From contig CAOKAE010000004.1 of the NCBI GenBank assembly GCA_948466335.1, positions 1,342-65,341 on the forward strand: 64,000 bases of DNA. The letters run 5' to 3'. A program made the translations under genes and the position numbers. Positions within the stretch are counted from its first letter, which is position 1; every line of letters starts with the position of its first letter. Below are positions 25,908 through 58,524 of this stretch, in pieces. Below the pieces are notes generated by a model that saw only the letters and a list, made by a program, of their open reading frames with translations, was not told the origin of the DNA and did no database searches. Origin of the DNA: an uncultured Coriobacteriia bacterium. GTDB lineage: Bacteria; Actinomycetota; Coriobacteriia; Coriobacteriales; QAMH01.

Positions 25908-25924
25908 AGGTATCCGCTCCTTTC

Positions 25925-26058
25925 TGCTCTCTCATCCGGACTGTAACCGTCGGCTCCAGACTCTCACTGGATCGGCCCTCCCAAAGGAGAGTTAGCGGGC
26001 TGCGCGGCGACCATGGCCGCTTACCGCCGGTGGGGAATTCCACCCCGCCTTGAACAGA
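25925..26058 (-). promoter_or_regulatory. FMN riboswitch (RFN element)
   Basis: Minus strand reads TTCAAGGCGGGGTGGAATTCCCCACCGGCGGT..AGCCCGC..GATCCAGTGAGAGTCTGGAGCCGACGGTTACAGTCCGGATGAGAGAG, matching the RFN consensus. Confidence 0.95.
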
Positions 26059-26127
26059 TGCAACGAACAGTATAGCCATTGCGTCTATAATGGGCGCGAC
26101 AATTTGGTAACGGCGAAAGAAGCGGAC

Positions 26128-38005: not shown

Positions 38006-38080
38006 GCGGGCGTCGCCAAGTGGTAAGGCCCTGGCTTCCCAAGCCAGTATTCGCGGGTTCGAGTCCCGTCGCCCGCTCCA
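38006..38080 (+). tRNA. tRNA-Gly (anticodon CCC)
   Basis: Acceptor stem GCGGGCG/CGCCCGC, anticodon arm CTGGC-TTCCCAA-GCCAG, GGTTCGAGTCCC T arm, encoded CCA; TATAAT upstream. Confidence 0.97.
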
Positions 38081-54378: not shown

Positions 54379-54460
54379 GAAAAGCCCTTCGGAGAGCAAT
54401 TGTTGCTTGCAGCGCATTATCTCATGACATGTCTTTACGCAGATGCTGATTGTTATAAGC

Positions 54461-54497
54461 GTTTGCAGATGTTATTATATGTATAACACCTGCAAAC
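54461..54497. promoter_or_regulatory. Operator palindrome upstream of the DinJ-YafQ operon
   Basis: GTTTGCAGATGTTAT-N7-ATAACACCTGCAAAC: 15-bp arms with one mismatch. Confidence 0.75.
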
Positions 54498-54513
54498 GCA
54501 AAGTGAGGGCATT

Positions 54514-54795
54514 ATGAGTACGACATACGCAATACGTGTAGACGAGAACATCAAAAACGAGGCAGCCGAGGTCGCAAAATTCTACGGCCTTGACTTGGCG
54601 AGTATGACGCGGGCACTTTGGGCGCAAATTGCCCGCACCCGCCGTATTCCCCTGGATTTCTGCGAAGAGGAGCCCACCGAGGAGAGTCTTGAGGCCATCC
54701 GCGAGACGCAGGAGATGATCGCAAGCGGCAAGGGCGGTCGCTTCAAGACGGCTCGAGAGCTGCTGGATGCAGCACTGGCGGATACGTCATGTTGA
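54514..54795 (+). CDS. dinJ: RelB/DinJ family antitoxin
   Basis: RHH-type N-terminus (IRVDENIK), RRIPLD, EPTEESLEAI; overlaps the toxin start. Confidence 0.85.
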   Translation: MSTTYAIRVDENIKNEAAEVAKFYGLDLASMTRALWAQIARTRRIPLDFCEEEPTEESLEAIRETQEMIASGKGGRFKTARELLDAALADTSC

Positions 54796-55079
54796 CCGCA
54801 GAGTATAGCCGCGCCTTTTCACGCGACCTCAAGCGCTTGGCAAAGAAGCATATTGACGACGCTCCCCTTGAAGGGGTAATCGCCCTCATTCTCGAAAACA
54901 CGATAGAGTCGCGCGATGAGTTAATTCGTCGCCATGAAATGCACACGCTCAGCGGCGCATGGGATGGCTCCAGCGAATGTCATGTCTGCAACGCTGGCAA
55001 TTGGCTGCTCGTGTGGGCAGTACGCGATGACATTGCGTACTTTCAGCGTACGGGAACCCATGACGAAATCTTCCGCTAG
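54789..55079 (+). CDS. yafQ: YafQ family toxin (ribosome-dependent mRNase)
   Basis: FSRDLKRL, HTLSG, ECHV, WLLVW, RTGTHDEIF. Confidence 0.88.
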   Translation: MLTAEYSRAFSRDLKRLAKKHIDDAPLEGVIALILENTIESRDELIRRHEMHTLSGAWDGSSECHVCNAGNWLLVWAVRDDIAYFQRTGTHDEIFR

Positions 55080-55115
55080 AGTGCGAATCCCCAAGCCATG
55101 AAGGAGGTGAGGCTG

Positions 55116-55367
55116 ATGTCCAAGAAAAAGCGCGCAAAGCGCCATGCTGTTCCAAAATCCGGAGCAGTCTGGCACCAAACGTCCGAGGAAGCGACGCTCG
55201 CGCAGATGCCACGCTATAACGCGTACGCTGGCGGGTACGGTCCGCACGGCAGTGCGAAGTACGACCGCGCCAAAGCCAAGCGTGATTGGCGGCGACAGAT
55301 TGGACAAGAAGGAGCCTCTCGGGGCTCCTTTCCTTTTCTAGAACGCCTCGCCAGAATTATGCGATGA
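55116..55367 (+). CDS. Small basic hypothetical protein; candidate ribosome rescue factor
   Basis: SD AAGGAGGTGA; 83 aa, Lys/Arg-rich; terminator hairpin inside the ORF. Confidence 0.8.
   Translation: MSKKKRAKRHAVPKSGAVWHQTSEEATLAQMPRYNAYAGGYGPHGSAKYDRAKAKRDWRRQIGQEGASRGSFPFLERLARIMR
55309..55339 (+). terminator. Intrinsic terminator inside the 55116 ORF (possibly bidirectional)
   Basis: AAGGAGCC-TCTCG-GGGCTCCTT stem followed by TCCTTTTCT. Confidence 0.75.
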
Positions 55368-55670
55368 AAAACGATCCTGGGGATTGCGGCGCTGATCCTC
55401 GACAGCAAATATCGTTACCGCGCAGGCTTCATCGTCGACACTGTAGTAAATCCCGTAATGCTCGCAAAAGAGCACTCGACACTCAAATGGCGGTCGCATC
55501 GCCTCATAGGCGGGATCATACTCGCGCCCAAGATAAGGCGACTCCTCGAGCAGCTCTATGCACTTTCCCACATGGTCAAATGTCGCATCTGACGGAATCG
55601 CGGCATAGGCATAATAAGCCTCATCGGTAAGGATGACTTCGTAGGGCAAGGAGATATCCCTATCGGGCAT
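55338..55670 (-). CDS. RelE/ParE family toxin
   Basis: YEVILTDEA, LEESPYLG, YGIYYSVD..VTIFAVEDQRR; downstream of and overlapping a Phd antitoxin. Confidence 0.8.
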   Translation of the reverse strand: MPDRDISLPYEVILTDEAYYAYAAIPSDATFDHVGKCIELLEESPYLGREYDPAYEAMRPPFECRVLFCEHYGIYYSVDDEACAVTIFAVEDQRRNPQDRFSSHNSGEAF

Positions 55671-55959
55671 GGCGTGCTTCCCTCGCCGCTGCCGCATCCT
55701 CACGAGCTTGAGCCAGGCTTCGCGTCCGTCCTGCCTGCGCATCGTCATAACCGCGCATGATGGCATTGTAGACGCGAGTTTCCCTGTCAAGAACGGCCTG
55801 GTGAACCGCCATCTCCGAATCGAACGACGCAGCGTCCATTATCACGAGAGCTGCCGTCCCGTTCTTCGTGAGGTAGATGGGCTTACCGCTTTCCTGACAC
55901 TCCCTCGTAATCTCAGCCATATTGCGCTGAAGATCGGATATGGGCATAACTACCGGCAT
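55660..55959 (-). CDS. Phd/YefM family antitoxin
   Basis: PISDLQRN, KPIYLTKNG..LVIMD; SD GGAGG. Confidence 0.88.
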   Translation of the reverse strand: MPVVMPISDLQRNMAEITRECQESGKPIYLTKNGTAALVIMDAASFDSEMAVHQAVLDRETRVYNAIMRGYDDAQAGRTRSLAQAREDAAAAREARHAR

Positions 55960-56082: not shown

Positions 56083-56607
56083 ATGAACGCACGTGAAATT
56101 TATCTCGCTGGTGGGTGCTTCTGGGGCACCGAGGCGTACTTGAAGAAGCTGCCTGGCGTCATAGACACAGAAGTCGGCTACGCGAATGCAAACGTGTGTG
56201 GCCCCTCCTACGAGGACGTATGCACGGGTGCAACAGATGCGGCCGAGGCCGTGAAGGTCACGTACGACGCCGATATCATCTCATTACCTCTGCTCTTGCA
56301 GGCCTATCTACGCACCATCGATCCGTTCTCACTCAACCGCCAGGGCAACGATGTAGGCACGCAGTATCGCACCGGCATCTACTGGGCGGACCCGGATGAT
56401 GAGCGTGCGGTGGAGTCGACGCTTATCGGGATTGCCCGCAGGGCCGGAAAGCAGCCAGCCGTGGAAGCTGCTGCGCTCACGAACTTCTATCCGGCAGAAG
56501 GCTATCACCAGGATTACCTTGGCAAGAACCCCTTTGGATATTGCCATGTGAACCTCGCGGATGCCGATGCGTTCATCGCCGAACATGCGACGGATTTTGG
56601 AGCTTAA
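56083..56607 (+). CDS. msrA: Peptide-methionine (S)-S-oxide reductase
   Basis: LAGGCFWG, GYAN, YEDVC, QYRTGIY, AEGYHQDYL..YCH. Confidence 0.96.
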   Translation: MNAREIYLAGGCFWGTEAYLKKLPGVIDTEVGYANANVCGPSYEDVCTGATDAAEAVKVTYDADIISLPLLLQAYLRTIDPFSLNRQGNDVGTQYRTGIYWADPDDERAVESTLIGIARRAGKQPAVEAAALTNFYPAEGYHQDYLGKNPFGYCHVNLADADAFIAEHATDFGA

Positions 56608-56981: not shown

Positions 56982-57359
56982 ATGTCCAACGAAATCCTGT
57001 TTCTGGAATATCCGAAATGCTCTACCTGCAAGAAGGCCAAGAAGTGGCTCGACGAGCATGACGTGAGTTATACGGCGCGTCACATCGTGGAGGACAATCC
57101 CAACGTCGACGAGCTTCGCGCATGGCACAAGCGCAACGGACTCCCCCTCAAACGCTTCTTCAATACGAGCGGCATGTTGTATCGCGAGATGGAACTGTCG
57201 AAGAAACTGCCGGATATGAGCGAGGATGAACAATATGCCCTGCTCGCCAGCAACGGCATGTTCGTGAAACGCCCGCTGCTGGTGACCGATACGACGGTGA
57301 TTCCCGGCTTCAAAGAAACGACATGGGAGCAGGCGCTAGGGCTTAGCAATAGAAACTGA
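56982..57359 (+). CDS. ArsC/Spx family (YffB/YusI-like) protein
   Basis: CSTCKKAKKWL, FFNTSG, KRPLLV. Confidence 0.92.
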   Translation: MSNEILFLEYPKCSTCKKAKKWLDEHDVSYTARHIVEDNPNVDELRAWHKRNGLPLKRFFNTSGMLYREMELSKKLPDMSEDEQYALLASNGMFVKRPLLVTDTTVIPGFKETTWEQALGLSNRN

Positions 57360-57617
57360 TGTCGCCTTGGAATGTCTCGCGCCATCTTTCACAAATGTAA
57401 TCGTGATTCAAAGAAATCAGCTCGAGCAAATCAGCCAGGTCGTCTTTAGGAATCCTGCTTTTGTTGTGAGCAAGCAGGCAACCCCCGAAGAGGTCAGCCA
57501 AACCTTTGTCGCATTTTCTTCAGGGCGTTTTTTGGAAATGTGGACATGAACCGGTTCGCCATTCTCCCCAACCCAAAAGAAAAGGATATAGGCGCCGAAC
57601 TGGAGTACTTTAGGCAC
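57343..57617 (-). pseudogene. DUF4160 family (HicA-like) gene frameshifted in a G5 tract
   Basis: EPVHVH..ATKVWLTSS continues as GCLLAHNKSRIP..ICERWRETF..FYC* in another frame; one extra G at 57482-57486 restores 91 codons. Confidence 0.75.
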
Positions 57618-57870
57618 AGACTTTGCCCGCCTCCCGCGAGAAGCGGTAAATCAAAGGAGCGTTGTTCTTAATGATAGTCGCAAGGTCATTGAGTTCTGCC
57701 TCCGAGAATCCTTCAGAATCGCTCCATTCGCAAGGTGGCAAATAGCACGTCGCGTAATCGAAGCCACCGTCAATCGGGCGTTCGACAGAGACCTGAATGG
57801 TACTATCTTCCAGAATGTTCGAGCAGGCAATCTGCGTATCATCTGCAAGCTTGAGATAGTTGTACATCAT
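57610..57870 (-). CDS. Hypothetical protein, probable partner/antitoxin of the DUF4160 gene
   Basis: SD AAGGAGG; acidic, 86 aa; overlaps the DUF4160 start by 8 bp. Confidence 0.75.
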   Translation of the reverse strand: MMYNYLKLADDTQIACSNILEDSTIQVSVERPIDGGFDYATCYLPPCEWSDSEGFSEAELNDLATIIKNNAPLIYRFSREAGKVCA

Positions 57871-57972
57871 CGCAAACAACCTCCTTTCAGCTTCAACTTA
57901 CTCATTATAGCTACTTCAAGCACGCAGACTATCGGCAAGAAATATCGAGTGACGTGGGAGCAAGCGCTAAAT

Positions 57973-58524
57973 CTATAGCCCCAACCTTGCGAGCAGCAGC
58001 TTGGCCTGCGTTGCCAGAGCCTCCCGCTCTTCAGAAGCGAGCTCGAGTTCGTCAGTCGTGTAGTCGTGGCGATTGAGCGCCACCTGAACGTGCGTGGTCT
58101 CCACCAAATCCGTCTGGAGAAACGAAAGCGTCTCGGCAAGGTCGGCTGCGCAGAAACGCGCCTTCGCACCGCCACCCGCACAACTGTAGAGCGTTGGCTT
58201 TTCCTGCATGACCGTTTCCTTCGAACCTTGCGCAATCGGACGTGACAGCCAATCGAGGCAATTCTTCAGCACGCCGGGAATGCCGTGGTTGTACTCGGGT
58301 GCGAAGACCCAGATCGCATCAGCTGCGGCAACCGCATCGCGCACGCGCTGCACGGACTCGGGCGTGGGAAACTCCATATCCTGGTTCATGTAGGGCAAGT
58401 CGGCATAGTCAAGCCAGCTGACCTGCACCGATGCGGGCAATAGACCGCGCACGTATTCGCCTACCTGACGATTGAGCGAGCGCTTGCGAAGTGATCCGCA
58501 GATGAACAGCACGTTCTTTTGCAT
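57973..58524 (-). CDS. NADPH-dependent FMN reductase
   Basis: GSLRKRSLN, PEYNHGIPGVLKNCLDWLSR. Confidence 0.93.
   Translation of the reverse strand: MQKNVLFICGSLRKRSLNRQVGEYVRGLLPASVQVSWLDYADLPYMNQDMEFPTPESVQRVRDAVAAADAIWVFAPEYNHGIPGVLKNCLDWLSRPIAQGSKETVMQEKPTLYSCAGGGAKARFCAADLAETLSFLQTDLVETTHVQVALNRHDYTTDELELASEEREALATQAKLLLARLGL

Follow-up and report, generated by a model that had tools for sequence, protein, structure and literature searches.

A 64,000-nucleotide stretch of contig CAOKAE010000004.1 from an uncultured Coriobacteriia bacterium (hereafter the window) carries, between a dinJ/relB–yafQ toxin–antitoxin (TA) operon and a convergent ParE-like toxin gene, a small open reading frame (ORF) for a very basic protein that runs through an apparent transcription terminator before it reaches a stop codon (Table 1). 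The initial annotation proposed this gene as a candidate ribosome rescue factor, and each feature that it described is indeed present in the sequence: a strong Shine–Dalgarno (SD) element, a basic ORF of 83 codons, a hairpin and T-tract inside the ORF 9 codons before the TGA, a start 36 nt past the yafQ stop and a ParE-like gene converging from the other side. The hairpin reads GAAGGAGCCT-CTCG-GGGCTCCTTT and continues with CCTTTTCT to position 55339, forming a 10-bp stem with a 4-nt loop; together with the T-tract it makes up codons 65–75. A GC-rich stem-loop followed directly by a T-tract on the transcribed strand is the configuration of an intrinsic terminator, and the scan found no other terminator-like site nearby on the plus strand. 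The predicted non-stop product ends near residue 73–74 (...GSFPF), with an isoelectric point (pI) of 10.6 and 16 lysines and arginines in 74 residues, and the tail between the T-tract and the TGA is probably not translated from the main transcript. Judged on the window alone, the hairpin is unremarkable: the terminator scan returned 3 sites in 3.5 kb against 3.2 expected from shuffled sequence, which is not significant, and the fold z-score of −1.2 is not significant singly. The significance of the hairpin therefore comes from the comparison across loci.

We collected a family of 205 members, comprising 61 relatives of the window protein from a word-indexed search and 144 further homologues; a profile search of 1.84 billion representative proteins returned 263 matches. 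After a basic N terminus, the members share the pattern VW-x-QT-x-EEATLA-x2-PRYN-x-[FY]A-x-G-x-G-x-HG-x2-KY-x-R-x-K-x-KR-x-W. Conservation in the alignment reaches as far as ...QEGASRGSF[PL]F, a peptide read directly from the hairpin and T-tract, the latter appearing as F-[PL]-F in the homologues. Beyond that point the tails show no relationship to one another, and the aligned proteins measure 74 to 146 residues overall. The few relatives named in their sources are called hypothetical proteins. The window protein and the distant members scanned matched no Pfam, NCBIfam or PHROG family, a Pfam scan of all 62 aligned members gave no recurrent family, the phage and plasmid collections searched held no family match, and a cluster look-up of the short relatives returned neither names nor taxonomy. 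AlphaFold2 with the family alignment yielded a low-confidence model (predicted local distance difference test score of 63, predicted template modelling score of 0.28), which predicts disorder over most of the protein and a single basic helix spanning residues 47–67. The 74-residue product lacks a GGQ motif, and its small, GGQ-free form with a positively charged C-terminal segment (residues 48–60) is that expected of a rescue factor that depends on a release factor (RF).

To compare the DNA, we scanned one genome per species, obtaining 98 matches, of which 80 loci were retained. Almost every locus bears a Coriobacteriia label, a few being assigned to Coriobacteriaceae or Atopobiaceae, and the carrier genera are Adlercreutzia, Slackia, Eggerthella, Parvibacter, Enterorhabdus, Ellagibacter and Cryptobacterium. 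Cultured carriers include Adlercreutzia equolifaciens, A. mucosicola DSM 19490, Slackia piriformis and Parvibacter caecicola. The initial annotation had suggested looking for retention of the terminator in other gene contexts, and the homologues do retain it, at the same codon position and in many unrelated settings: an in-frame GC-rich hairpin followed by a T-rich run was found in about 78 of the 80 loci, the exceptions being a second, decaying copy (L011) and a locus at a contig end (L055). Homologues that normally stop before the hairpin, the arrangement the initial annotation had set against its own proposal, did not appear among these loci (0 of 80). The in-frame stop lies 13 to 1146 nt past the hairpin, giving ORFs of 74 to 451 codons with a median of 93. 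In 70 of the 80 loci, T accounts for at least 5 of the 9 nt that follow the core stem. A conserved hairpin or terminator inside the ORF, ahead of the stop, is characteristic of non-stop genes of the ArfA and BrfA type.

Two kinds of selection can be told apart along the gene. In codons 18–61 of the homologous loci, third positions have an entropy of 1–1.9 bits while first and second positions are nearly fixed; as judged from this pattern, that part evolves as protein. Third codon positions are constrained only within the hairpin codons, where pairing is kept in 98.3% of alignment cells and compensatory double changes occur in 7 of the 9 pairs. Double-change cells number 34 against 3.3 in shuffled alignments, none of 500 shuffles reached the observed value, and the covariation signal collapses once the partners are slid against each other. 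Several lineages have divergent stems, for example GGGACCCCGCGGGGTCCC, GCGCCCGCAACCGCGGGCGC and GGCCCCGCGAACCGCGGGGCC, with pairing, frame and T-tract kept; such variants alter the peptide, from EGASRGSF to EGTPRGPF, GARNRGR and others, and still pair. By this comparative evidence the hairpin is selected as nucleic acid, in the form of an intrinsic terminator. The coding signature and the covarying stem together indicate a gene that consists of a protein-coding part joined without a stop to a nucleic-acid element. We therefore consider it very probable that a conserved Coriobacteriia protein gene, encoding about 64 conserved residues that are very basic and largely unstructured, runs without a stop codon into its own conserved terminator.

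The hairpin was also traced as a sequence in its own right. Its exact 23-base form occurs once in the window, and a search of 596 Gb of genomes located just 43 sites. In 31 of these cases the hairpin closes a full copy of the gene at its 3′ end; 3 sites lie beside C-terminal remnants, 7 stand alone in Eggerthellaceae and 2 fall in Pseudomonas. Given this uniqueness in the window and this distribution of exact sites, we rejected the idea of a dispersed repeat. One stand-alone case, in Adlercreutzia equolifaciens (L071, 6256–6280), has the hairpin and T-tract 45 nt downstream of a flavodoxin-like gene's stop codon. The element resembles an ordinary terminator at that place, or may instead be all that is left of a lost gene copy. 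The two Pseudomonas sites (L115, 5042–5064; L122, 2378–2400) have no homologue of the gene nearby. Copy number varies as well. L008 and L011 lie about 7 kb apart on the same contig, L011 being a full ORF with a degenerate hairpin; four sites (L051, 5107–5172; L109, L111, L136 second site) retain only the last 20–25 or so codons with an intact hairpin; and one metagenome-assembled genome has two full copies on different contigs (L108 and L110). A Coriobacteriia-type gene also appears in eight bins named for other taxa, namely Prevotella, Ruthenibacterium, Bacteroidaceae, Melainabacteria, Eubacterium, Succinivibrio, Oribacterium and Alloprevotella (L013, L024, L027, L042, L055, L067, L068 and L074). 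All eight bins come from a single 'cleanbin' series, which makes mis-binning likely.

Outside the window, the annotated settings of the gene are unrelated to one another: it is flanked by a UvrA-like gene and a MerR regulator, follows a type III pantothenate kinase gene (CoaX) convergently with VanZ, or follows HydF, and a search of the 80 loci for conserved neighbours found no gene common to more than 9 of them. An almost invariant SD block, GAAGGAGGTGA(G), is found within about 7 nt before the ATG in almost every one of the 34 loci with a placeable start, one locus having only AAAGGAGGTG directly abutting the ATG. In most loci a TGnTAnnAT-like −10 element precedes this block by 35–45 nt, indicating that the gene is normally transcribed from a promoter of its own. 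The window (54450–55116) and its 95%-identical relative L001 (3399–4001) lack the element because the end of yafQ occupies that position, and in the window genome the gene may be co-transcribed with dinJ–yafQ. The SD block and the 5′ arm of the hairpin have GAAGGAG in common (window 55100–55112 and 55308–55331), so that the 3′ arm (CTCCTTY) could in principle also pair with the SD element, a possible 5′–3′ interaction or switch; this resemblance is lost in lineages with other stem sequences.

Table 1. Features of the small gene and its surroundings in the window.
Feature	Position	Strand	Basis or remark
ORF of small basic protein	55116–55367	+	83 codons, pI about 10.6, sequence MSKKKRAKRH...RDWRRQIGQEGASRGSFPFLERLARIMR
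Start ATG; stop TGA	55116; 55365–55367	+	read directly
Extended SD element GAAGGAGGTGAGG	55100–55112	+	3 nt before ATG, read directly
Conserved coding part, codons 1–64	55116–55307	+	homologue alignment, codon-position entropy
Terminator stem-loop within ORF, codons 65–72 (EGASRGSF)	55308–55331	+	terminator scan and conservation
Stem-loop parts: 5′ arm; loop; 3′ arm	55308–55317; 55318–55321; 55322–55331	+	
T-rich tract TTTCCTTTTCT	55329–55339	+	expected transcript 3′ end
Read-through tail up to TGA	55340–55367	+	unconserved; overlaps 3′ end of convergent ParE gene
Promoter-like site	54450–54478	+	promoter scan; upstream of dinJ/relB–yafQ operon
dinJ/relB (RelB/DinJ)	54514–54795	+	Pfam RelB, E = 2e-11
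yafQ	54789–55079 (stop 55077–55079)	+	Pfam YafQ_toxin, E = 2.5e-19
ParE-like gene, convergent	55338–55673	−	Pfam ParE_toxin, E = 8.8e-7
Phd antitoxin gene	55660–55959	−	Pfam PhdYeFM, E = 2.3e-8
msrA	56083–56607		adjoins DUF4160 pair
ArsC/Spx-family gene	56982–57359		adjoins DUF4160 pair
FMN (flavin mononucleotide) reductase gene	57973–58524		adjoins DUF4160 pair

Several further features of the window were recorded. Codons 2–5 of the small gene (TCC AAG AAA AAG) include an in-frame AAA followed by A, which we take to be the kind of site that YafQ cuts. Two small overlapping ORFs on the minus strand (57417–57879), of which the downstream one is a DUF4160 protein and the other matches no family, look like a third TA-like pair within 3.5 kb of the small gene. 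Farther away lie an FMN riboswitch (25920–26061, minus strand, 100.8 bits) and a tRNA-Gly(CCC) gene (38006–38080, plus strand).

To our knowledge, arfA and brfA are the only gene families with a stop-less mRNA design, under which the protein appears only on failure of trans-translation, and both encode backup rescue factors. BrfA (YqkK of Bacillus subtilis, 71 codons, RF2-dependent) resembles the window family in being small, in having an in-ORF terminator, a basic C-terminal part and no GGQ motif, and in being confined to a single bacterial lineage. The two differ in host, Coriobacteriia versus Bacillaceae, and in the conserved Lys-His motif that the window family lacks. The report on BrfA demonstrated experimentally both the rho-independent terminator inside the ORF and repression dependent on transfer-messenger RNA (tmRNA); it also placed the basic C-terminal part in the mRNA channel and considered further unidentified systems of this kind likely in many bacteria. 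BrfA showed low compatibility across species. Our profile search against PDB chains returned no rescue factor at E ≤ 10, the PDB copy used being expected, though unconfirmed, to include the cryo-EM chain of BrfA that its report describes.

ArfA (YhdL, PF03889; beta- and gammaproteobacteria, RF2-dependent) is likewise small and disordered, with an in-ORF hairpin, a non-stop mRNA and an abundance controlled by tmRNA; its hairpin, RNase III site and terminator lie ahead of the stop, as described in the paper on ArfT, and the hairpin doubles as the RNase III site. The layout of the two proteins is also similar. Each has a hydrophobic segment, an invariant Pro followed by an aromatic residue, and a Gly-containing basic C terminus with G-x3-Y-x-R-[KA]-x-K (EALL-x2-P-x-F...G-x-G-x-Y-x-RK-x-K in ArfA versus EATLA-x2-P-x-Y...G-x-HG-x2-KY-x-R-x-K in the family), a resemblance that we treat only as a lead. 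ArfT of Francisella tularensis, which uses RF1 or RF2, is small and basic too; it is unrelated in sequence to ArfA and shows that the rescue function arose repeatedly. The initial annotation was mistaken in listing ArfT with the factors that have an internal terminator: the ArfT paper states that arfT has neither a terminator nor an RNase III site before its stop, and that its mRNA level is independent of ssrA. A different kind of precedent, the leader-peptide attenuator, also has a short ORF translated across or next to a terminator hairpin, so that translation and termination can interact. Attenuators, however, govern a conserved downstream operon and have unconserved peptides, whereas the window peptide is under protein-level selection; we rejected this assignment, the genes downstream being unrelated or convergent.

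Such a design would depend on trans-translation in the host. According to a published survey, every Eggerthellaceae genome that we looked up has both smpB and ssrA, and carriers of the gene are among these genomes. For the Coriobacteriia genomes consulted, the rescue systems listed in published tables are limited to tmRNA, in some cases accompanied by ArfB. The survey marks arfB as absent from Cryptobacterium curtum and Adlercreutzia mucosicola and as present in A. caecimuris and A. equolifaciens; the arfB-negative A. mucosicola DSM 19490 carries the gene (L030). No tmRNA gene lies within the 64-kb window, and our literature search found no earlier description of a non-stop gene or of an alternative rescue factor in Coriobacteriia.

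These comparisons suggest how the gene may operate. Most transcripts would end in the T-tract, at about 55335–55339, and hence lack a stop codon; ribosomes would then reach the mRNA 3′ end and stall, and the product of about 74 residues would be tagged by tmRNA–SmpB and degraded. When trans-translation is saturated or lost, untagged protein would build up, so that its level would report a shortage of trans-translation capacity. The protein would most likely serve as a backup for freeing non-stop ribosomes. In this model the basic C-terminal segment (KY-x-R-x-K-x-KR-x-W-RKQ) would sit in the empty mRNA channel while a release factor is recruited, as with ArfA and BrfA; lacking a GGQ motif, the protein could not itself hydrolyse peptidyl-tRNA. 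We infer termination at the T-tract, tmRNA tagging of the product and rescue activity from the architecture and from these precedents. RF-dependent rescue is the most likely function because the only known precedents are rescue factors and because the protein has the corresponding form. By that analogy, the chain as a whole, from non-stop architecture through to RF-dependent rescue, seems to us close to an even chance, if slightly short of it.

Several observations count against this proposal, beginning with relatives that do without the non-stop design. About 14 of the 205 family members, found in lower-GC and partly phage-like surroundings, are short, with 56–71 residues ending 8–16 residues past KY-x-R. 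The DNA of seven of these shows an ordinary stop and no in-ORF hairpin in every case (7 of 7), one of them having a separate terminator-like hairpin and T-run downstream of the stop. The protein's basic function therefore needs no non-stop expression. On this distribution, the non-stop design is a property of the Coriobacteriia branch, to which by far the most members belong, and does not extend to the whole family. This split between normal-stop and non-stop members parallels that between ArfT, with its normal stop, and ArfA and BrfA; since arfT has no internal terminator, ArfT is the counterpart of the normal-stop relatives and not of the window gene. The contigs of the normal-stop relatives range from 34 to 65% GC. 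One relative (P0192; L095, 734–931; L096, 523–720) stands in a row of small, functionally unassigned genes, all on the same strand, alongside a Lar-type restriction-alleviation gene, surroundings that look like a prophage or phage fragment, and others of the seven are in operons. Another (P0189; L093/L094, 4001–4216) has a ribosome hibernation factor gene (Ribosomal_S30AE) some 2 kb away on a contig of 46% GC, a proximity that may be coincidence.

Sequence comparison with the known factors adds to these objections. PF03889 matched neither the window protein nor any of the 62 members, even at E ≤ 5. The initial annotation had heard an echo of ArfA in the G-x3-Y-x-R spacing, and this kinship found no support: hhalign gave the family a probability of 0.1% against ArfA, although the low diversity of the ArfA set (80–100% identity) limits the power of that comparison, and an ArfA hidden Markov model scored family members no better than shuffled sequences (median −0.75 versus 0.2 bits). 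In place of the KGKGS(Y)xRK motif of ArfA the family has HG-x2-KY-x-R-x-K-x-KR, with only the G-x3-Y-x-R spacing in common, and both the ArfA/BrfA Lys-His motif and KGKGS are absent from it. The search of PDB chains returned chance matches only, two pyruvate dehydrogenase E2 chains at E = 2. At the level of the loci, the T-tract is weak in 10 of 80, some genomes hold second copies or decayed remnants, and a closely trailing ribosome could suppress formation of the hairpin. Nor is the distribution cleanly complementary to that of ArfB, which A. caecimuris and A. equolifaciens possess alongside the gene. Escherichia coli, for its part, has both ArfA and ArfB.

Much of this would be equally at home with a protein that shares the non-stop architecture and does something else, whether as a ribosome- or RNA-binding stress effector, a regulator or a growth-arresting peptide silenced by tmRNA tagging. 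The architectural evidence applies equally to such an effector, and the missing homology to any known rescue factor, the normal-stop relatives in a phage-like gene string and in operons, the extra copies and remnants and the co-occurrence with ArfB in some genomes all suit it. We nevertheless regard it as rather unlikely, given that arfA and brfA, the sole known genes of this design, are rescue factors, that small size, lack of GGQ, disorder and a basic C-terminal segment fit the rescue class, and that no neighbour or domain suggests another function. It is also conceivable that an ordinary small-protein gene has a terminator overlapping its end by chance, the functional protein arising from read-through or untagged release and the missing stop having no regulatory meaning. 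The hairpin alone is statistically ordinary in the window, the lack of a stop in its frame could follow simply from conservation of its sequence, the same hairpin stands alone past an unrelated gene in L071, and the distant relatives work with a normal stop. Codons 60–65 (CGA, CAG, CAA, GAA), however, are one mutation from a stop, yet none of the 80 loci stops there at protein identities of 51–95%, and lineages with entirely different stems are also without a stop. The stops after the hairpin fall at random positions, as far as 1146 nt downstream, so that proteins made by read-through would end in long meaningless extensions; the tail of the window gene overlaps convergent parE. A chance overlap thus appears improbable.

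The remaining alternatives turn on the toxin genes beside the window gene. The initial annotation supposed that the protein might buffer neighbouring mRNases, in which case it would be a third component of the TA modules, relieving the ribosome stalling that YafQ or the ParE/RelE-like toxin brings about. The gene does lie 36–39 nt past yafQ in both the window and L001, without a −10-like element, and may be co-transcribed with dinJ–yafQ there. The conserved linkage of a type II TA accessory is not seen, however: in tblastn searches with the four TA proteins, L001 was the only one of the 80 related loci with homologues near the gene, so that adjacency holds in 2 of 81 loci counting the window, and annotated neighbours elsewhere are unrelated housekeeping genes. 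A general TA-buffering role is largely refuted, and we consider a TA component very improbable. The initial annotation had also cautioned that the hairpin might simply be the terminator of the convergent toxin gene; a related suggestion is that the region is a conserved non-coding RNA. The parE stop codon (55338–55340) falls inside the T-tract, the minus-strand fold has a z-score of −2.4, and the hairpin may also end the parE transcript. On the minus strand, though, the hairpin is followed by TTCTTGTCC, which is no proper T-tract, and the scan calls no terminator there. The hairpin is conserved in loci with no ParE gene nearby (79 of the 80 related loci lack the pair) and persists where no gene converges on it, and in L001 the ParE/Phd pair lies upstream, not convergent, with the hairpin intact, which indicates that the hairpin belongs to the small gene and that the TA adjacency is incidental. 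Together with the codon-position pattern upstream, which reflects protein-level selection, and the absence of an Rfam match, this disposes of the caution, and a purely ParE-derived or non-coding element is scarcely credible.

We return to the backup rescue factor and its possible place among known systems. Tentatively, we suggest that the gene represents a third, independently evolved family of RF-dependent rescue factors under trans-translation control, the first in Actinomycetota, native to gut Coriobacteriia (Eggerthellaceae and relatives) and expressed from an obligatorily non-stop mRNA, with constitutive normal-stop relatives in other bacteria and in phage-like elements; this fuller picture is possible rather than probable. 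Throughout a whole class of gut Actinomycetota the family keeps its design, with covariation in the stem, in a protein unrelated in sequence to the known factors and unannotated in the libraries searched. If the function is confirmed, the family would be a third independent origin of non-stop regulatory logic, would fill the rescue-factor gap for Coriobacteriia and would bear on trans-translation inhibitors as antibiotics. It would also supply a simple rule for finding further factors in genomes, namely to look for conserved ORFs that extend into conserved terminators. Should the function prove to be another, the gene would still encode a new protein with its abundance governed by trans-translation capacity.

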